41,728 nucleotides of DNA from a virus. Taxonomy: Duplodnaviria; Heunggongvirae; Uroviricota; Caudoviricetes. The notes beneath the pieces were generated by a model. That model was not told the origin of the DNA and made no database searches. It was given only the letters and a program-made list of their open reading frames with translations. The translations under genes were made by a program, and so were the position numbers. This document shows, piece by piece, positions 1 to 38,468 of this stretch (positions are counted from its first letter, which is position 1; each line of letters begins with the position of its first letter). The stretch lies in the IMG/VR virus record IMGVR_UViG_3300022746_000001; one strand, 5' to 3'.

Positions 1-840
1 GGTGGACGACACTTCGAGGGTCGCGTACAAGACGTTAAAACCTTTGAGAGAAGCGGCCTTTGCGAAACCAATCAAAGCGGTTGTCTTACCTGATTTGGCG
101 CCGCCCATGATTGTGGCGAGTTCTTTTCGACCCCAACCCTTGTGATAAAGGAGTTCGTCCAGCTTTAAGTTGCCGGTAGTGATGCCTCGCGCTGGTCGGA
201 TACCAGAGGCGTCGTCGATACGGATGGTGGTACGGTCTCCGATCTTCTCGAAGTAATCGTAGGCATCACCATCTTCGTTCACGCCTATCTGGATTGCCGC
301 TCGTACTTCCTCTTCGATCTTGTCGAATTTTTTCTTCTCGATCAGATCAACGGACTTCAGGATAGCCAGACTTACGGCTTGGTGACGCGCAAACTCAGCA
401 ACCTTCTCTTCGACGAAGGCGCGATCACTGATGGGGAAACCCTTGATCTTGTTCAGGGTGTCTTTGACAACTGGAACGAGGTCGCGGCGAATAATGCCGT
501 TGGCAACTTGATCCTTGAATGTTTGAATCAGTGCTGCGCGGCCTGGCGCGCTGTTGTACTTTTTGTAATACTCCAGCGCGATGTTGACTACGGATGCCTC
601 ACCCACATCTTCGAAGAATTGTGGCTTCAGAAGGTGAGCGATTCTCCGCATGAACTCAGAATCAGCAGCAGCGAGTGCCGTGATCTGTGTTTGGAAATCA
701 GCGTCAAAGCTAAACTTTTTGACTTCTTCTTCAGGCTGTTCAACTTCAACTTCTTCAGTCGTTGGCAGCTCACCTGAAAAACTGGCCCCGATAGCTTCCG
801 CTGCGGCTTTCTCTGCCGCTTCGAGAGTTAGATCGGACAT
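1..840 (-). CDS. Replicative DnaB/SF4-type DNA helicase, N-terminal 280 aa (runs off window start; absent from ORF track)
   Basis: Manual translation from ATG at 840: MSDLTLE... Walker A MGGAKSGKTT at about 79-108 is in frame, followed by VLYATLEV with the SF4 catalytic Glu. No stop codon before position 1. Confidence 0.88.
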   Translation of the reverse strand, partial: MSDLTLEAAEKAAAEAIGASFSGELPTTEEVEVEQPEEEVKKFSFDADFQTQITALAAADSEFMRRIAHLLKPQFFEDVGEASVVNIALEYYKKYNSAPGRAALIQTFKDQVANGIIRRDLVPVVKDTLNKIKGFPISDRAFVEEKVAEFARHQAVSLAILKSVDLIEKKKFDKIEEEVRAAIQIGVNEDGDAYDYFEKIGDRTTIRIDDASGIRPARGITTGNLKLDELLYHKGWGRKELATIMGGAKSGKTTALIGFAKAASLKGFNVLYATLEVSST

Positions 841-842
841 GC

Positions 843-1142
843 TTAGTGTGTGGTTTCAGCGTTAGCAATGCCAGGAGTAAAGAAGAGACGAATGTCGTGC
901 TTGAACAGGACGTAGACTTGATAGCTTTCGTCGGAGTTCGTAACCTTCATGGAGATGGTGAACTTGTCGCTATGCTTGACGGTTCCAGTCATGGATGTGC
1001 CGTCTGTAAATTCGCAAGTGACTTGTGCGCCAGATGCTTCTAGCGCCTTTAGAAATGCCTCATGACCTTTTGGTGTTGATGCTTTGGGTGTGCGCTTGTT
1101 GCCGCCGTTGAAATGTGAACGGGGTTGAGCTTCGAATGTCAT
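843..1142 (-). CDS. hfq: Hfq-like Sm-fold RNA-binding protein
   Basis: FLKAL...G...G..DKFTISMK...LFKHDI aligns colinearly with Hfq Sm1 (FLNAL...G..G..DQFVILLK) and Sm2 (YKHAI). Start moved to ATG 1142, which has an AAGGAG RBS. Confidence 0.82.
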   Translation of the reverse strand: MTFEAQPRSHFNGGNKRTPKASTPKGHEAFLKALEASGAQVTCEFTDGTSMTGTVKHSDKFTISMKVTNSDESYQVYVLFKHDIRLFFTPGIANAETTH

Positions 1143-1184
1143 GGGTACTTCTCCTTGTTGCAAAATCGTTGTGACCTTCACAGT

Positions 1185-1202
1185 ATAGTCACTTGTGACT
1201 TA
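1185..1202. promoter_or_regulatory. Palindromic operator copy ATAGTCAC-TT-GTGACTTA, overlapping -10 TATACT (1182-1187, minus) upstream of hfq
   Basis: Matches the 18-bp consensus. The -35 is poor (GTGCAG). Confidence 0.75.
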
Positions 1203-1931
1203 TTCTGCACCGGAGAAGTCAATTGCCTCTCTAACTACCCGTTCAGGGAAATGTTCGATCGCTTTCTCTATACGTATCGCGTCTTCAATATAGAGTGCAG
1301 CATTGAGTGCGAAGTGTGGTCGCTGCCTAGTTTTGATGCTGTCGATGATGAACTGCTCATAGGCCAACTGGTCGGCATGCCCAAAGAAGTTGGAGACCTT
1401 GTAGCGATCGTCCACTGCGAACTGCATACGTGCGCCACACTCCTCTTCCCACGCCATCATAATGTCCGTAATCATTTCAGGGTTGGTCATTAAATGGCTT
1501 GGGCGAGCTGGTTTAGTCCATCCGTTTGCGATGCACCAATCCATGCCTTTCATCAGGTAGAAGTCGTAACGAATGCCGAGCTTGTCGATGTGCTGACGTA
1601 GTCGCCAGAAAGACAGCCGTTCTTTAGACTGCATGAAGTCTAAGCCCTTGAAGCCTCGCATGTACGGGGCCGACCTTGCGTCTTGGGTAATGGAGATGAA
1701 GCGCGAATATGCCTTGTTGTAGCAGTGCGCAAGAAAGTAAGTGGCCTTTGTCGGGTGCATCCGACGATAGTCAAACCACTTTACCTGCATGAGAGCCGAC
1801 TCCTTCTTCAGCAGAGCGTCCGTGACGTTTTGAATCGCCAGGACTTCTGCGTGAAGAAAGTCTATGTCGTGCCCGTAGAAGTAGCCGAGCCACTCCCCGT
1901 GTTTGGGTTCTGTATTTGGGGTTTGGGTCAT
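1200..1931 (-). CDS. Hypothetical phage protein (243 aa)
   Basis: Long co-oriented ORF with no recognised motif. Confidence 0.8.
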   Translation of the reverse strand: MTQTPNTEPKHGEWLGYFYGHDIDFLHAEVLAIQNVTDALLKKESALMQVKWFDYRRMHPTKATYFLAHCYNKAYSRFISITQDARSAPYMRGFKGLDFMQSKERLSFWRLRQHIDKLGIRYDFYLMKGMDWCIANGWTKPARPSHLMTNPEMITDIMMAWEEECGARMQFAVDDRYKVSNFFGHADQLAYEQFIIDSIKTRQRPHFALNAALYIEDAIRIEKAIEHFPERVVREAIDFSGAE

Positions 1932-1946
1932 CCGTGCCGTCTGTAA

Positions 1947-1964
1947 TAAATCATGATTGACTTA
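1947..1964. promoter_or_regulatory. Degenerate operator copy TAAATCAT-GA-TTGACTTA
   Basis: 15 of 16 palindrome-arm positions are not all matched: 3 mismatches to consensus. Intergenic, 15 nt upstream of the 1931 start. Confidence 0.45.
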
Positions 1965-1981
1965 TTTTAGATAGCGTTTAG

Positions 1982-2007
1982 TTAATCTACGAGGGAGACT
2001 TTATCCC
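1982..2007. repeat. Intergenic element A, copy 1 (TTAATCTACGAGGGAGACTTTATCCC)
   Basis: 24 of 27 columns identical to 37170-37196. Confidence 0.6.
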
Positions 2008-2016
2008 CGCACCCAA

Positions 2017-2769
2017 TTATTCGTCTTCACCCACCTCATAGGCTTCGACAATCTCTTGCACCAAGCCGGAACGCACCACGTCCTGACGGGTGAAGCGAAC
2101 ACATTTGACTGATGGGATATGGGAGATGCGCTTCACGGCGTCGTCCAGACCCGATTGTCCGTGAATGTCTTTCTGACGAATGTCGCCGTTGACCACGACT
2201 TTGCAATCGTGACCGATGCGGGTCAGGAACAGCTTCATTTGGTTGGGAGTGGTGTTTTGCGCTTCGTCCAAGATCACGAAGGCTCGCTTGAAGGTGCGAC
2301 CGCGCATGTATGCAAGGGGTGCTGCCTCGATGCGGCCGATCTTGAGCATGTACTCGACAAAGCTCTTGCCAAGTCGCTCATTGAGAACGTCGCGGAATGG
2401 TTGGAGATAGGGGTCAAATTTGTCTTCGATTTCGCCAGGGAGGAAACCGAGTGACTCGCCTGCTTCGACTGCGGGTCGGGTGATGATGATCTTGTCGATC
2501 ACGCCTTCTTGAAGGGCTTGTGCTGCCAAAGCTCCACAGAGCCAAGTCTTACCTGTACCAGCGGGGCCGGTGGCGAACGTCAGTTCAAAACTTTTGATGG
2601 CGTTAATGTATCGGCGCTGCGATTCATTCAGAGGTTCGATTGGACTTTTGTCTACCTTCTCTGCCCTGACGGGGGCGGCGTAACCATCCCCTTCGTCTAT
2701 TTGAGTGTTAAAACGTAAGCCTTTACGTTTAACTTGACTGCGGGATGGTTGCGCTTTTTGTTTAGCCAT
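2017..2769 (-). CDS. phoH: PhoH family ATPase
   Basis: GPAGTGKT Walker A, IIITRPAVEAGESLGFLPG, APLAYMRGRTF, ILDEAQN, TRIG and GD motifs, all diagnostic of PhoH. Confidence 0.97.
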   Translation of the reverse strand: MAKQKAQPSRSQVKRKGLRFNTQIDEGDGYAAPVRAEKVDKSPIEPLNESQRRYINAIKSFELTFATGPAGTGKTWLCGALAAQALQEGVIDKIIITRPAVEAGESLGFLPGEIEDKFDPYLQPFRDVLNERLGKSFVEYMLKIGRIEAAPLAYMRGRTFKRAFVILDEAQNTTPNQMKLFLTRIGHDCKVVVNGDIRQKDIHGQSGLDDAVKRISHIPSVKCVRFTRQDVVRSGLVQEIVEAYEVGEDE

Positions 2770-2802
2770 GCGTTGCTGCCCTTAAATTGTTACTGCGCCA
2801 CC

Positions 2803-2832
2803 ACTATACCTCAGTCAGTGGTGACGTATCAA
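2803..2832 (-). promoter_or_regulatory. sigma70-like promoter TTGATA-N18-TATAGT with operator TCAGTCAG-TG-GTGACGTA (2811-2828) in the spacer
   Basis: Read from the sequence upstream of phoH. Confidence 0.65.
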
Positions 2833-2839
2833 TATAAGG

Positions 2840-4165
2840 TTACAAAACAGTCAGCGTTTTTGGAATGGAGCCTTCGTGTTCGGCAGGATTGCGATAGTAG
2901 AACTTGCCGCCGGAAACAGCGAAGTCTGTCACGCTCACGTAATCAAAGTTTGTCGCTTTGGTTTCGGTATCGACGTTAACCATCACAAAGCCGTTGTGCC
3001 AGCGCTCGCCTTCGCAGTACGAAGCGGAGCGACGATGACCGGAGCCGAGCTGGTGCCACTCATACGGGCCGTAGATGGGGCTGAACTCGCTCCACACTTG
3101 ATGGCGATGATGATGGCCGTTCACGCCAGGCAGACCCATGTTACGTGCATGTGGGAAGTGGTGAATCAGGACGGACTCGTAATAGATTTTGTAGTTCGTT
3201 GCCAACTCACGTTCGAAGTCTCGCTTGGTGAATGCGGCGAGATCAGCTTTGGCGATGTAGTTGATTTCGAACTTGTCCAAGCCAAGCAGCTTGGCGATTG
3301 TGAAGCCGTGAAGGTCGGACAACACAGCTCGGAGCGCAGGCGTAGCGTCAGCCAATTGCCGTAGCATCCGAGCTTCGTGGTTGCCTTCAATGAAGTCGAT
3401 TTGAGTGTTGGGACAGGCTTCGCGCAGTGGGCCGAGAATCTTCTCGTGTGCGAACTTGATGCGCCCCACTACGTTCCATTCGCGCGGGTCAACACCATAC
3501 TTGCCAAATTCAGGGAGGTCGAAAATGTCGCCAGCCAAAACGATCACATCTGGCTGTACGCGCTTGGCTGTGTCAATCAGGACGCGCAGATAGAACAGGT
3601 CAATCTCAACGTCATGGAGGTCGGAACACACCAAAATCGTTTTGAATCGGGTGTTGTTGTTGCGGATGTACTTGTCTGCAAAATCAGCGCGTTCAATGTT
3701 CAGGCGGCGATAGTGGTCAACCGATGCGTGTTTCGCAATGGCGCGCTCATGTGCGTGTTGCTGACGTGAGAGCTTGATACCTGCTTGACGCTTGAACTCT
3801 TCGAACGTACCGAAGTAGCGGTTCCAAGTTGATTCGGAGATGGCGCTATGGTTGCGGAAGTAATTGCGAGTGACGATCTTCTCGGGGTCGATCTCCGAGA
3901 TGCGTTGCAGCTCGTTGATACAGTCGTCAGGCGTCCAATGCTCCATGAATTTTGAAGCATCTTCTGACATGGGGTTGTCGTTGATGTTGGCGCGACGAAT
4001 TAGCTTCGGCGCGGTTGGGTCTGACTTACCCATTGTGCGAATGAAACCAGCCTTGTTTCGCACTGTCTTGATTGAGATACCGAAGTGTTCCGCAACATCG
4101 GCAACAGACGGGAATTTCTCCAGATCGTTATAAGCCTCTGTAAATTGTTTAATCTCCGCTGTCAT
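2840..4165 (-). CDS. Calcineurin-like metallophosphoesterase with N-terminal HTH-like region
   Basis: SDLH, GDIFD, GNHE and GHHH metal motifs. The N-terminal SVADVAEHFGISIKTVRNK is HTH-like. AAGGAG RBS. Confidence 0.88.
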   Translation of the reverse strand: MTAEIKQFTEAYNDLEKFPSVADVAEHFGISIKTVRNKAGFIRTMGKSDPTAPKLIRRANINDNPMSEDASKFMEHWTPDDCINELQRISEIDPEKIVTRNYFRNHSAISESTWNRYFGTFEEFKRQAGIKLSRQQHAHERAIAKHASVDHYRRLNIERADFADKYIRNNNTRFKTILVCSDLHDVEIDLFYLRVLIDTAKRVQPDVIVLAGDIFDLPEFGKYGVDPREWNVVGRIKFAHEKILGPLREACPNTQIDFIEGNHEARMLRQLADATPALRAVLSDLHGFTIAKLLGLDKFEINYIAKADLAAFTKRDFERELATNYKIYYESVLIHHFPHARNMGLPGVNGHHHRHQVWSEFSPIYGPYEWHQLGSGHRRSASYCEGERWHNGFVMVNVDTETKATNFDYVSVTDFAVSGGKFYYRNPAEHEGSIPKTLTVL

Positions 4166-4186
4166 AAAACTCCTTGTTAAAACGAA

Positions 4187-4618
4187 TCAGGCCGTGAATG
4201 ATTTGCCTGCTTGTAAGTCCGCCAGCTTCAGGCCGCCTGTGTACTGAAAGTGCGCAAGTTCTGGAAATGACTTCCATCGCTTTGCCCATTCAAGGCCACA
4301 GGACTCACCTATCGCACCAACCTTTTCCCACAACTTTCCGTCTTCGCCAGTGGTTCCCCAGACAGGTTTGCCATTGACTAGCGGCACTACATCGACTGCC
4401 ACTCGGAAGTTATGAAAAGATTGCCCAGGCTTGGCGTTTGTCACGATCTTGCCTGGAGCAGTACGACCTTGGGCATACAGCGCGGCTTGCGATTCCATGT
4501 CCCGAAAGGTGCTTGTCACAAGAAGATCAATGCCTGCTGTGTGACAGGCTTCGATGAACTTGCGAACCTTTGCGGCGACGACTGGATGAAGTACGTCTAA
4601 GCTACGACTGTTGACCAT
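4187..4618 (-). CDS. Endolysin, peptidase M15 (L-Ala-D-Glu peptidase type)
   Basis: R..ESQAALYAQGRT, SFHNFRVAVD (SxHxxxxAxD) and ELAHFQ motifs. AGGAG RBS. Confidence 0.93.
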   Translation of the reverse strand: MVNSRSLDVLHPVVAAKVRKFIEACHTAGIDLLVTSTFRDMESQAALYAQGRTAPGKIVTNAKPGQSFHNFRVAVDVVPLVNGKPVWGTTGEDGKLWEKVGAIGESCGLEWAKRWKSFPELAHFQYTGGLKLADLQAGKSFTA

Positions 4619-4632
4619 GATTGCTCCTAAGT

Positions 4633-4650
4633 ATAGTCACGGGTGACTTA
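4633..4650. promoter_or_regulatory. Operator copy ATAGTCAC-GG-GTGACTTA, overlapping -10 TATACT (4630-4635, minus) upstream of the endolysin
   Basis: Matches the consensus. The -35 is poor (GCGCAG). Confidence 0.75.
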
Positions 4651-4660
4651 TGCTGCGCCA

Positions 4661-5116
4661 TTAACGAATGGCGTTATATGCGTCGATACAGGCGTTCAAT
4701 TGCCGGATGGCTTTGTCGCCGTCGTTGGTGATGGCGATAAGGTTGTCAGAAGTCTCTGCGTCAAGTTCGGCTCGCGCTTCTGTCCGATTTCCGGTGGCAG
4801 AGGTGGAACCTTCGCAGGTGTATATGGTTGTGGGGACTGACAGCCGACGAGTGCCAGCGCGAACATCAGCGCGCAGCCTAGTGATTTCAGTGTCTGCATC
4901 TTTGTTTGCCTTTGCGAGTTGAAAAGCCATGTCATTGATTTGGGCTGTATGCGCTTGTTCTTCGGCGCGCGCCTTCTCATTCAGCTTTGAAATGGCGACT
5001 TGGTTTTCAAGTTGAGACGCCTCGTAACCTTTGTGATGGCCTAGCCCAAATGCGAAAAGCGTGGATAGAACCACGCCTAAGATCACGTAAGGACTGGGCA
5101 GTGAAGGAAGCGTCAT
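4661..5116 (-). CDS. Rz: Rz-like inner-membrane spanin
   Basis: N-terminal TM helix, coiled coil, LRADVRAGTRRLSV and QLNACIDAY C-terminus. A lipoprotein gene is nested in another frame. Confidence 0.9.
   Translation of the reverse strand: MTLPSLPSPYVILGVVLSTLFAFGLGHHKGYEASQLENQVAISKLNEKARAEEQAHTAQINDMAFQLAKANKDADTEITRLRADVRAGTRRLSVPTTIYTCEGSTSATGNRTEARAELDAETSDNLIAITNDGDKAIRQLNACIDAYNAIR
4696..4899 (-). CDS. Rz1: Rz1-like outer-membrane spanin lipoprotein, nested in Rz
   Basis: MQTLKSLGCALMFALALVGC lipobox followed by a Pro-rich mature region. Fully embedded out of frame in Rz. Confidence 0.88.
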   Translation of the reverse strand: MQTLKSLGCALMFALALVGCQSPQPYTPAKVPPLPPEIGQKREPNLTQRLLTTLSPSPTTATKPSGN

Positions 5117-5553
5117 GAGCGTTTTGCCGTAACTGTCTTCTTGGCGACAACAGTCTTCTTAGCCGGCGTCTTCCGAACTGCTGGCTTTTTTGCCGCAACC
5201 GCAATCTTCTCGTCCTTGTGGAGAGCGACAACAGCAGCCTCGATCTTTTCTTCGCGCTTTACTTGGTGAAATTCTTTGTACGCCGCAAGGCCGTAACCGC
5301 CACCGATCGCCGCGATGCCATACGAGATGAACGCCCACGAAGGGAACGACAGCACCGACACCGTGATGCCAGCGACGAGGTATTGCAGACACTGTGCAGA
5401 CTGCGCAAGCAAGCCTACAGCAGCGACAATCAAGCCAACTTTGTGATACGAGGGGAACAGGTGTGAACGCTCATGGAGCAAGCCCACGACGATCACAGCG
5501 AGGCCGATAAGGTCGGCAATCAGAACTGAACTGAACAGAAGATCATTAGCCAT
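5113..5553 (-). CDS. Membrane protein, holin/antiholin candidate (3 TM, Lys-rich tail)
   Basis: Three hydrophobic segments and a basic C-terminus. Lies in the lysis cassette. Confidence 0.6.
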   Translation of the reverse strand: MANDLLFSSVLIADLIGLAVIVVGLLHERSHLFPSYHKVGLIVAAVGLLAQSAQCLQYLVAGITVSVLSFPSWAFISYGIAAIGGGYGLAAYKEFHQVKREEKIEAAVVALHKDEKIAVAAKKPAVRKTPAKKTVVAKKTVTAKRS

Positions 5554-5555
5554 CT

Positions 5556-5975
5556 TTACCCCTTGGTTGTTGCTGGTTTTCTAGGCTTGCGCGTAGTTGT
5601 CTTGCGGCGGGTAGCCTGCACTTCTTTTGCGACTTCCAGAATGTCTTGACCTTCGCGACGATCAAAGAAGTTGGCGATGAAGTTGATTAAGCCGACTGAG
5701 GCGACGCCCAAGATGAAGCCGATGCCGAGTGCTGTGTCCATGTCGGCGAGGTCGAGACCAGCCCAACGTGCGACGAGACCACCAAGCGTAAAAGCGCCAC
5801 CAACGGAGATAGCTCCAATGATTGCGCCTGCGGCTAGTCGTCCATGTTGTTTGATTTTTTCAGGCTGCCAGAACACGCTAATGCTCAAGCCGCCGATAAG
5901 ACCCGCGAGTGCGGAAAGGCCTTTGCCGATAACAAAGCCTGTACCTGCGGCGGTGGATGTGATTGGTTCTGGCAT
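5556..5975 (-). CDS. Holin-like membrane protein
   Basis: Three hydrophobic Gly/Ala-rich helices and a basic C-terminal tail. First gene of the lysis cassette. Confidence 0.65.
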   Translation of the reverse strand: MPEPITSTAAGTGFVIGKGLSALAGLIGGLSISVFWQPEKIKQHGRLAAGAIIGAISVGGAFTLGGLVARWAGLDLADMDTALGIGFILGVASVGLINFIANFFDRREGQDILEVAKEVQATRRKTTTRKPRKPATTKG

Positions 5976-6009
5976 TGAAGCTCCGATGTGATTAAGCGCG
6001 GCGTCCGAC

Positions 6010-26499: not shown

Positions 26500-26526
26500 G
26501 AAAAAGCCCCGCACGAGGCGAGGCTT
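26500..26526 (-). terminator. Intrinsic terminator after the tail tube gene
   Basis: AAGCCTCGC-CTCGT-GCGGGGCTT followed by TTT. Confidence 0.75.
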
Positions 26527-26541
26527 CATTCTACAACAAAG

Positions 26542-26559
26542 TCAGTCAGTTGTGACAGA
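26542..26559. promoter_or_regulatory. Operator copy TCAGTCAG-TT-GTGACAGA
   Basis: Degenerate consensus match between tube and chaperone genes. A -10-like TAGAAT lies downstream on the minus strand. Confidence 0.55.
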
Positions 26560-31042: not shown

Positions 31043-31070
31043 AAAAAGGGTGGGTCTTTTGAACCCACCC
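31043..31070 (-). terminator. Intrinsic terminator after the major capsid gene
   Basis: GGGTGGGT-TCAAAAG-ACCCACCC followed by TTTTT. Confidence 0.85.
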
Positions 31071-31071
31071 C

Positions 31072-31100
31072 ATTCTAAGTCAGTTGTGACTTACCCGCAA
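31072..31100 (-). promoter_or_regulatory. Promoter TTGCGG-N17-TAGAAT with operator TAAGTCAG-TT-GTGACTTA (31076-31093) in the spacer
   Basis: Read from the sequence. Confidence 0.72.
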
Positions 31101-37206: not shown

Positions 37207-37536
37207 TTACGGCTCCAGAAACTCTTCAATCTCTTGAAAAGCCGTGTCTTCTTCCTCGCTGACAACGAATGACGGGCCGGCAGTTTTTGCGCCCATGATG
37301 GTTGCGCCAGCGGGAGTGATCTTGATGATGGCTCGGACTCGTCCGCGACGTTTTTCACCCGTACCTTTCTCAATCAGCCCGTGAGCAATCAAAGCTCGGA
37401 TTGAGAATTGAATTGACTGTTTCGTCGGCTTGTAAGAAACCCGCTCAATCACTTCGTCAAGATCGGTTGGTGAACCGTCCGTGTTGCCTTGATTGATAAC
37501 TCGCAGGAGTTCGATTTGTTTCGCTGTCAGTTGCAT
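37207..37536 (-). CDS. Winged-helix DNA-binding protein
   Basis: LTAKQIELL.VI...DLDEVIE...SIQFSIRALIAHGLIEK plus wing GEKRRGR, as in MarR/ArsR-like folds. Confidence 0.8.
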   Translation of the reverse strand: MQLTAKQIELLRVINQGNTDGSPTDLDEVIERVSYKPTKQSIQFSIRALIAHGLIEKGTGEKRRGRVRAIIKITPAGATIMGAKTAGPSFVVSEEEDTAFQEIEEFLEP

Positions 37537-38468
37537 GGTTGTGCGTATTGGTACTCGGGCGGCAGCTTTGAAACGTCGAGCGGCGCGTCCGTTGGTTGGT
37601 AATCGAAGGCCAAAACAGGCAGTCGAGGGGGAAGTGACGATTTGGCTTTTTCAGGGCTTGCATCGGGGTTGATATAGACACCGTACAGGGGACTCGCCAG
37701 GGTGAGTTGTTGCAGTGACTTGAGCAGATACCCTACGTCCATCGTTTCAGAGCGCTCTACGCCCCTAAAACGCGCGTTGCCGGTCTTTTCCAGGGCCGAC
37801 GAAGCGTAGTAGAACTTGCGCATCTCATTGACGCACTTCTCACGCACCGCTTTTGGCATCTGGTCGATTTCCTTCATGATGCCCACGTAGTCCGATGGAT
37901 TTGATTCGAACCAGCGACGGAAGAACTCTAGTCCCTTGTCGAACTTGGCAGCCCGTTTGGGCTTAGTGAACCGAATCCCCGCTTTCGCAGCGAACGGATT
38001 GAACTTGGACATGGATGATTGGAACTCAATCACGCCACAGCCTGTCATTCGCATCATCAGGTTCTGCATACGGTATGCAATGCCGGCGCCGCGATACATG
38101 GTGTCCAGAACCAGCCGGCTGTTAGTGCAGGCGTTGTCATTGATCCACATAGCGCGATGGCGGTTGATGAGGCGTGTGTCCATGCCTCCTGTGTTGGGCT
38201 TCAGATGCTCAAACACCTCATTGCGACCCGATAGCAGAATCTTCGGCACGGTCATGACACCGACGCCGATGGTCTGCCCTCGCAAGACGCAGCGATAAAT
38301 GCGTGGCCCAATCCCCAAGTTTTCTGCCTTGTAGTGCAGCTCGTGGAGCAAGTTCCAATCATCAATGTCGCCGCGCTCGACGTAGATTTCGTCCAGCAGG
38401 GAGAGCGCATGGTTTGCCGGTGGCTGCCGGCGCTCCATGTAAATGTCTACGTTGTCGCAAACAACCAT
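37527..38468 (-). CDS. GNAT-family acyltransferase, partner of the ABC ATPase
   Basis: LHY N-terminal motif, SRLVLDTMYRGAGIA acyl-CoA motif A and SSMSKFNPF..KAG. Confidence 0.8.
   Translation of the reverse strand: MVVCDNVDIYMERRQPPANHALSLLDEIYVERGDIDDWNLLHELHYKAENLGIGPRIYRCVLRGQTIGVGVMTVPKILLSGRNEVFEHLKPNTGGMDTRLINRHRAMWINDNACTNSRLVLDTMYRGAGIAYRMQNLMMRMTGCGVIEFQSSMSKFNPFAAKAGIRFTKPKRAAKFDKGLEFFRRWFESNPSDYVGIMKEIDQMPKAVREKCVNEMRKFYYASSALEKTGNARFRGVERSETMDVGYLLKSLQQLTLASPLYGVYINPDASPEKAKSSLPPRLPVLAFDYQPTDAPLDVSKLPPEYQYAQPCN

Follow-up and report, generated by a model that had tools for sequence, protein, structure and literature searches.

In E. coli, the canonical route by which Hfq promotes annealing joins an mRNA bound to its distal face and an sRNA bound to its proximal face over a patch of arginines. 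Panja et al. place the active site of annealing at these rim arginines, and they note that where a Gram-positive Hfq has fewer basic residues on its rim (RKEN, KANQ), its role with sRNAs is weaker or unclear (PMC3753642). [quoted passage not shown]

Here, we describe an Hfq-like gene directly ahead of a gene for a DnaB-like helicase in a 41,728-nt stretch of temperate phage DNA (hereafter, the window) from the Caudoviricetes record IMGVR_UViG_3300022746_000001. The original prediction, made from the sequence of the window, was that this gene encodes a phage Hfq in which the proximal pocket is intact and the rim and distal faces are lost. That the gene is phage encoded is borne out by the portal, large terminase, scaffold, major head, and tail-fiber genes in the same window. 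No known RNA family was matched in the window by Rfam models at their gathering thresholds, nor did ARAGORN detect a tRNA.

The family to which the gene belongs is neither unique nor unannotated, as public records already name homologs Hfq. PGAP uses the name "RNA chaperone Hfq" for homologs in A. baumannii and Cupriavidus plasmids, the homolog of Pseudomonas phage Nican01 is named "hfq," and homologs in JGI metagenomes are named "sRNA-binding regulator protein Hfq," while PHROGs lists the family as unknown. The paper on Nican01 does not mention the hfq gene, and our literature searches did not find an experimental study of the phage- or phage-plasmid-encoded Hfq proteins of this family. At default sensitivity, neither megablast with positions 1 to 6000 of the window nor tblastn with the Hfq-like protein (P0001) gave a match among the INPHARED phages; a family profile was needed to detect the homolog in phage nickie.

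The Hfq-like gene and its predicted fold

The features of the region from dnaB to phoH are listed in Table 1. The original prediction placed 2 nt between the stop codon of the Hfq-like gene and the helicase ATG, and this spacing is exact. We identified no clear Shine-Dalgarno sequence in front of dnaB of this phage. For the Hfq-like gene, a GTG start codon at 1181, which would give a 112-aa protein, was rejected because it falls within the promoter/operator sequence and because the nearest relative has the same ATG start as that in Table 1. In a comparison with the related locus L025, in which the Hfq-like protein has 90% amino acid identity to P0001, the dN/dS of the Hfq-like gene was 0.078, supporting that the open reading frame is a protein-coding gene under purifying selection. 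The strength of this selection is similar to that on dnaB (0.057); the gene for the 243-aa protein had a dN/dS of 0.063.

Table 1. Features between dnaB and phoH, with coordinates in the window
Feature	Position	Strand	Details
DnaB-like replicative helicase gene	1..840	-	5' part; 474 aa in full, continuing beyond the window; Pfam DnaB_C on L001
Junction of Hfq-like stop and dnaB start	841..842	-	2 nt; helicase ATG 840-838
Hfq-like gene (P0001)	843..1142	-	99 aa plus stop; ATG 1142-1140, TAA 845-843
Shine-Dalgarno sequence AAGGAG of the Hfq-like gene	1151..1156	-	8 nt upstream of the ATG; conserved in relatives
-10-like hexamer TATACT	1182..1187	-	immediately after the palindrome; good -35 absent
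Palindrome GTCAC-N2-GTGAC	1188..1199		one copy of the dispersed operator-like site of the phage
Gene for 243-aa all-helical protein, phrog_2500	1200..1931	-	AF2 pLDDT 93.6; upstream of the Hfq-like gene
PhoH-like ATPase gene	2017..2769	-	first in the conserved array; Pfam PhoH on the identical L001 gene
Sigma-70-like promoter TTGATA-18-TATAGT	2803..2832	-	upstream of phoH; palindrome copy 2814-2825 in the spacer

The Pfam Hfq model (PF17209) matches P0001 with 29.8 bits (E 4.7e-7), which is above its gathering cut-off of 27, and also matches 40 of 41 aligned relatives. The NCBIfam equivalog models TIGR02383 and NF001602 gave scores far under their cut-offs (24.8 versus 61.7 bits and 17.4 versus 95 bits, respectively), while E. 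coli Hfq, scored in the same run, passed both (99.6 and 148.5 bits). By these scores, P0001 belongs to the Hfq family without being an orthologue-grade Hfq. A search of the family profile against all PDB sequences returned Hfq chains only, with those of S. aureus (E 1.5e-8) and B. subtilis (E 1.1e-6) as the best matches, followed by those of Listeria, Aquifex, and E. coli.

In an AF2 model based on the family alignment, residues 1 to 25 are disordered (pLDDT ~55), while residues ~30 to 90 have a pLDDT >90. The core (residues 26 to 90) has the Sm topology with helix alpha1 (residues 27 to 37) followed by five strands, beta1 to beta5 (residues 40 to 45, 50 to 58, 62 to 68, 74 to 80, and 84 to 88). 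When this model was compared with the PDB using Foldseek, all of the 50 best matches were Hfq, with TM-scores by target mostly of 0.7 to 0.89, identities of 20 to 26%, and an rmsd mostly of 1 to 3 Å over ~60 residues. The PDB profile search and the 50 best Foldseek matches show that the match to Hfq is beyond chance, and the original assignment of P0001 to the Sm proteins of the Hfq family is one on which the Pfam threshold, the AF2 fold, and Foldseek agree.

We also noticed that the stretch GHEAFLKALEASGAQV (residues 15 to 50) mimics an ankyrin-repeat consensus. With phmmer, these residues gave spurious matches to designed ankyrin repeats (E 3.6e-4), and a search of representative sequences gave multi-stretch matches to long repeat proteins that stem from the same ankyrin likeness. 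We rejected an ankyrin homology of residues 15 to 50, as GHEAFLKALEASGA resembles the ankyrin consensus by chance.

Surface residues across the family

To assign residues, the family profile was aligned with E. coli K-12 Hfq (sequence from NC_000913.3) using hhalign, which gave a probability of 87% and an E-value of 4e-6 with an identity of 26% over 57 aligned columns. In this alignment, residues 28 to 68 of P0001 correspond without gaps to Hfq residues 9 to 49, residues 69 to 74 are a 6-residue insertion, and residues 75 to 90 correspond to Hfq residues 50 to 65; this register agrees with the AF2 secondary structure. Based on the profile alignment, every residue named in the original description was correct. 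Thus, F42, K56, and H57 of the proximal pocket are kept as F61, K81, and H82; the rim residues R16, R17, and R19 are replaced by E35, A36, and G38; and the distal residues Y25, I30, and K31 are replaced by E44, T49, and S50. D40 of Hfq is also kept (D59), Sm2 of P0001 reads F80-K81-H82-D83-I84, and the basic N-terminal sequence KRTPKASTPK comprises residues 16 to 25. Two changes in the pocket had been missed, i.e., Q41 is replaced by K60, similar to K41 in S. aureus, and Q8, by ungapped extension of the alignment, is replaced by H27. A "KALE" motif in common with S. aureus Hfq was dropped because the underlying HMMER alignment was shifted by 3 residues from the register given by E. coli Hfq and the secondary structure.

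We measured conservation on 218 aligned relatives pooled from two database searches, and found that the combination of a kept proximal face with a lost rim and a lost distal face holds across the family. G26, H27, D59, and K81 are 100% conserved, and E28, A29, L31, L34, G53, T62, V78, F80, H82, I84, and F87 each reach a conservation of 90% or more. In the pocket, H82 is present in 94%, Y or F at position 61 in 98%, and K60 in 88% of the 218 sequences. The position equivalent to R16 is a glutamate in 82% and an arginine in 2%, the position equivalent to R17 is variable, and the position equivalent to R19 is a glycine in 71%. Few positions in the protein vary as much as the distal ones, which have an entropy of 2.3 to 3.5 bits. 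The N-terminal tail varies in length and is net positive in 99.5% of the members with a median charge of +4, compared with a median of -1 for the Sm core. Judged from this pattern of conservation and charge in the relatives, selection maintains the proximal face, helix alpha1, and the basic tail, and maintains neither a rim patch nor a distal site. Residues exposed on helix alpha1 do not vary. Known contacts between Hfq and RNA do not account for the additional invariant motifs GHEAFLKALE and KHSDK, which could mark another ligand or a protein partner. The invariant histidine replaces Q8, which is a uridine contact in Hfq.

We favor, with moderate confidence, the reading that P0001 is a diverged Sm protein of the Hfq branch that forms a ring and binds U-rich RNA ends, without annealing at an arginine rim. 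Ring assembly, RNA binding, and the RNA targets are inferred. P0001 would most likely assemble into a homo-oligomeric ring, as suggested by homology and by the conserved beta4-beta5 residues V78, F80, I84, and F87. The conserved proximal pore, lined by H27, K60, F/Y61, K81, and H82, would take up U-rich RNA in single-stranded form, in most cases at 3' ends like those of terminator tails, and the conserved, basic, disordered N-terminal tail would assist in RNA binding. The rim has a conserved glutamate in place of arginines, and a conserved distal site for A-rich RNA is absent; because both the arginine rim and the conserved distal site are lacking, the canonical E. coli route of annealing would be closed to P0001. 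A protein with these surfaces may have no matchmaker activity, as originally proposed, although the conserved basic tail could partly replace the arginine rim and allow some annealing. The histidine in place of Q8, the additional invariant motifs, and the low NCBIfam scores count against the favored reading.

The same combination of a kept pocket with a lost annealing rim and a lost mRNA face would also suit a competitor that binds sRNAs and does not deliver them. P0001 could enter the rings of the host Hfq to form dominant-negative mixed hexamers, or its own rings could soak up the U-tails of sRNAs; as in the model originally put forward, host sRNA regulation would be disabled or rewired early in infection. 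Expression together with the early and replication genes, as predicted from the layout of the promoter and gene junction, would fit such interference. Moreover, plasmid-borne Hfq3 of B. anthracis is toxic to the host when overexpressed, demonstrating that a plasmid-encoded Hfq can affect host physiology, and this toxicity depends on the distal face (PMC5348863). The low identity to E. coli Hfq over the aligned columns argues against interference with the host protein, as does the observation that no relative with the length of a canonical Hfq was apparent among 187 matching representative clusters. Also, the hosts of the family range from Acinetobacter and Pseudomonas to Burkholderiales while the invariant residues are the same, and therefore co-assembly with each of the different host Hfq proteins seems unlikely. 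Overall, we regard interference with host Hfq as an unlikely function of P0001.

Gene order and transcription of the helicase-primase region

The portal protein encoded in the window is ~53% identical to those of 112- to 122-kb siphoviruses of Rhizobium and Pseudomonas (Nickievirus) and to that of a Klebsiella SSU5-like element, and many homologs of the Hfq-like gene are on contigs of 104 to 112 kb. The loci with an identical Hfq-like gene continue to genes for primase, ligase, and integrase and to cobT. The named relatives of the neighboring genes are from Ferrovum, Paraburkholderia, Polaromonas, and Undibacterium, some of them integrated, which makes Burkholderiales the probable hosts of the immediate clade. 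Elsewhere in the window, a gene just upstream of the packaging genes (37527-38468, minus strand) encodes a soluble ABC-type ATPase (phrog_886, E 2e-129), and a permease gene is absent nearby.

We compared nine loci carrying the gene, i.e., the window, L025, L005, L017 to L020, phage nickie, and the A. baumannii 107-kb plasmid. In all nine, the order is PhoH, a gene of ~200 to 250 aa, the Hfq-like gene, DnaB, and primase, with RepB in the place of PhoH in the A. baumannii plasmid. Between the stop codon of the Hfq-like gene and the start codon of dnaB, the spacing is +2, +2, +5, +2, -1, -10, -4, -8, and +9 nt in these loci, so that the close juxtaposition described for the window is a conserved feature. 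The array occurs in uncultured phages of the Burkholderiales type, in Pseudomonas Nickievirus phages, and in Acinetobacter phage-plasmids, and, as judged from these sequences, the Hfq-like gene is fixed ahead of the helicase gene in a group of phages and phage-plasmids of ~105 to 115 kb.

The Rhizobium phages RHph_N1_10 (L023, MN988505.1) and B1VFA (L024, MT770738.1) have an array of genes for PhoH, a 240-aa protein, DnaB, primase, and a WGR protein, in which DnaB is 42 to 47% identical. Neither the family profile nor the Pfam model matched an Hfq-like gene in these two genomes, and only 88 to 118 nt separate the genes that would flank it. Because the Rhizobium phages keep the array without the Hfq-like gene, this gene is accessory and is unlikely to have an essential role as a helicase loader, and this type of helicase can function without the Hfq-like protein. 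We note that the DnaB homolog of B1VFA is annotated as "DNA primase."

The 243-aa protein matched no Pfam family and had no usable match in the Atlas. Foldseek against the PDB returned nothing below an E-value of 0.6, the best Z-score with VIA-align was 5.2 over 78 residues, which is within noise for helical proteins, and the AFDB clusters contained only unnamed relatives. Genes of this family always follow phoH and precede the Hfq-like gene or, as in the Rhizobium phages, dnaB, and the protein is a candidate initiator or loader. The order of an unknown protein, a small protein, and a helicase resembles initiator-loader-helicase modules, for which G38P-G39P-G40P of SPP1 is an example.

This resemblance raises the possibility that P0001 is an accessory of the replisome, in which the ring would either dock on the hexameric DnaB or, at the fork or origin, bind RNA primers or ssDNA. 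The location ahead of dnaB in all nine loci, with the tight junctions, and the invariance of the exposed residues of helix alpha1 are in line with such a role. Similarly, in Thermococcus and Methanocaldococcus plasmids, Hfq-like genes directly adjoin helicase genes in the same transcription unit (PMC3543421). Weighing against this role, the Rhizobium phages have the remainder of the module; moreover, as synteny extends over the entire module and tight packing is general among phage genes, adjacency to dnaB is by itself weak evidence. We consider it improbable that P0001 is a component of the replisome. The recurrence of a position beside a helicase gene for the unrelated Hfq-like genes of archaeal plasmids counts against the favored reading, as it hints that the role is linked to replication and is not one of binding RNA in general. 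In its broadest form, this idea would mean that P0001 is not an RNA regulator, and that a replication-linked Sm ring has been recruited repeatedly beside helicases (in the phage described here, in Nickievirus, in Acinetobacter phage-plasmids, and, independently, in archaeal plasmids) to act on primers, R-loops, or ssDNA or to dock on DnaB via helix alpha1 and the basic tail; we find this doubtful and give it little weight.

The original prediction that the Hfq-like gene has its own operator-promoter is supported by a conserved architecture. Ahead of the Hfq-like gene in eight of the nine loci (the window, six related uncultured phages, and the A. baumannii phage-plasmid), a palindrome GTCA-N4-TGAC abuts TATACT or TATAAT. 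A scan with the sigma-70 consensus did not call a promoter ahead of the Hfq-like gene, because the -35 is poor. On the minus strand between phoH and the Hfq-like gene, we found no terminator-like site, and read-through from the phoH promoter into the Hfq-like gene is, therefore, also likely. These data support that the Hfq-like gene is the predicted leader of a helicase-primase unit with its own regulated promoter.

Allowing one mismatch, the palindrome GTCAC-N2-GTGAC is present 13 times in the window (starts at 1188, 2814, 4636, 6443, 12527, 14249, 14916, 21405, 26545, 31079, 32116, 34764, and 36770), while 1.9 copies are expected and none of 100 shuffled sequences reached 13. Twelve of the 13 copies are at gene boundaries on the coding (minus) strand, where they abut a -10-like hexamer, lie within a promoter spacer, or are directly upstream of a -35-like TTGACA. 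The palindromes look like the operator network of a single regulator over replication, lysis, tail, head, and packaging genes. At 31047-31090 and 26506-26556 (minus strand), the palindrome and a -10-like hexamer (TAGAAT) have, only a few bases further on, a strong hairpin with a U-tract that resembles a terminator. Both of these sites are just ahead of the ribosome-binding site of the next gene, and one of them follows the major head gene. Transcription from these sites would yield a U-tailed RNA of very small size; alternatively, the hairpin may simply end the upstream gene.

With regard to the favored reading of P0001 as a ring that binds U-rich RNA ends, the gene would be the first of the helicase-primase transcription unit, behind an operator-like palindrome. 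Its transcript runs straight into dnaB, and the protein would therefore be made with the replication proteins, acting as an accessory factor and not as a core replication factor.

A further alternative is that the target of P0001 is the mRNA of its own operon, i.e., that it stabilizes the helicase-primase transcript or counters Rho-dependent termination on it. The gain-of-function variant D25Y of the LSm-like protein GoF of T4 stabilizes RNA with the 5' region of the helicase gene 41, while wild-type GoF does not have such an effect (PMC12152347). The Sm-like protein Rof inhibits Rho (PMC11018626). Also, dnaB, which does not have a clear Shine-Dalgarno sequence of its own, is predicted to depend on upstream translation. 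However, P0001 has no sequence similarity to GoF or Rof, and the alternative is based solely on analogy with these proteins; moreover, all of the 50 best structural matches are Hfq proteins, which form rings, and Rof is not among these 50. We consider protection of, or read-through on, the operon mRNA very unlikely.

Comparison with known systems

If the inferred properties hold, P0001 would be a natural separation-of-function Hfq with the pocket for sRNAs and 3' ends but without the annealing rim or the mRNA face, and it could serve as a probe of which Hfq activity needs which surface. It would also show how RNA is handled, during early expression and replication, by the temperate phages and phage-plasmids found in Burkholderiales, Pseudomonas, and Acinetobacter. 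Because cultured members of the family exist, i.e., the P. syringae phages nickie, Nican01, and phiK7B1 and the A. baumannii ~107-kb phage-plasmids, the question can be tested directly.

The closest annotated homologs are WP_000614153.1 of an A. baumannii ~107-kb phage-plasmid, hfq of Nican01, and CNR34_00048 of nickie, which is annotated as hypothetical. They belong to the same family based on tblastn (36% identity, E 5e-6) and the profile (E 5.5e-8), and, similar to the gene in the window, they are located between a gene for a protein of ~200 to 240 aa and dnaB, with the A. baumannii copy having the same palindrome and TATACT. They differ in being only 33 to 37% identical to P0001, and the A. 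baumannii protein has an N-terminal extension of ~100 aa. The nickie protein (L012 5007-5276, 89 aa) has FKS instead of FKH in Sm2, its gene overlaps dnaB by 8 nt, and its promoter has a different palindrome, CAGCGCG-TATACT-CGCGCTG, which flanks the -10.

[quoted passage not shown] Archaeal ZF-Hfq is encoded beside a helicase gene like P0001, but is fused to a zinc finger and encoded downstream of the helicase gene (PMC3543421). None of the three T4 proteins has the Hfq motifs or is predicted to assemble into a ring, and GoF(D25Y) acts on helicase mRNA (PMC12152347).

In comparison with bacterial Hfq (PF17209), as represented by the E. coli protein (PDB 1HK9/3RER), P0001 has the same Sm fold of helix alpha1 and five strands, a similar Sm2 (FKHDI in the phage protein and YKHAI in E. 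coli Hfq), and the residues corresponding to F42, K56, H57, D40, and G34. Unlike in E. coli Hfq, the rim reads EASG with a conserved glutamate instead of RRER, distal residues Y25, I30, and K31 are lost and the face is variable, and Q8 is replaced by an invariant histidine. Also, P0001 has a 6-residue insertion between beta3 and beta4 and a basic N-terminal tail in place of the C-terminal tail.

Among the known proteins, Hfq of the S. aureus/B. subtilis type (PDB 1KQ1/1KQ2 and 3HSB) gave the best profile matches. Similar to P0001, S. aureus Hfq has a D-K-Y motif in the pocket (K41, Y42), and these proteins have few or no rim arginines (KANQ in S. aureus; PMC3753642). In contrast to P0001, the Gram-positive proteins are chromosomally encoded and have kept a purine-binding distal face, while the phage family is marked by an acidic residue on the rim, a distal face that varies, and the GHEAFLKALE and KHSDK motifs of its own, and its genes occupy a fixed position in a phage replication operon. 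Compared to the Gram-positive rims RKEN and KANQ, the phage family goes further in the loss of the rim.
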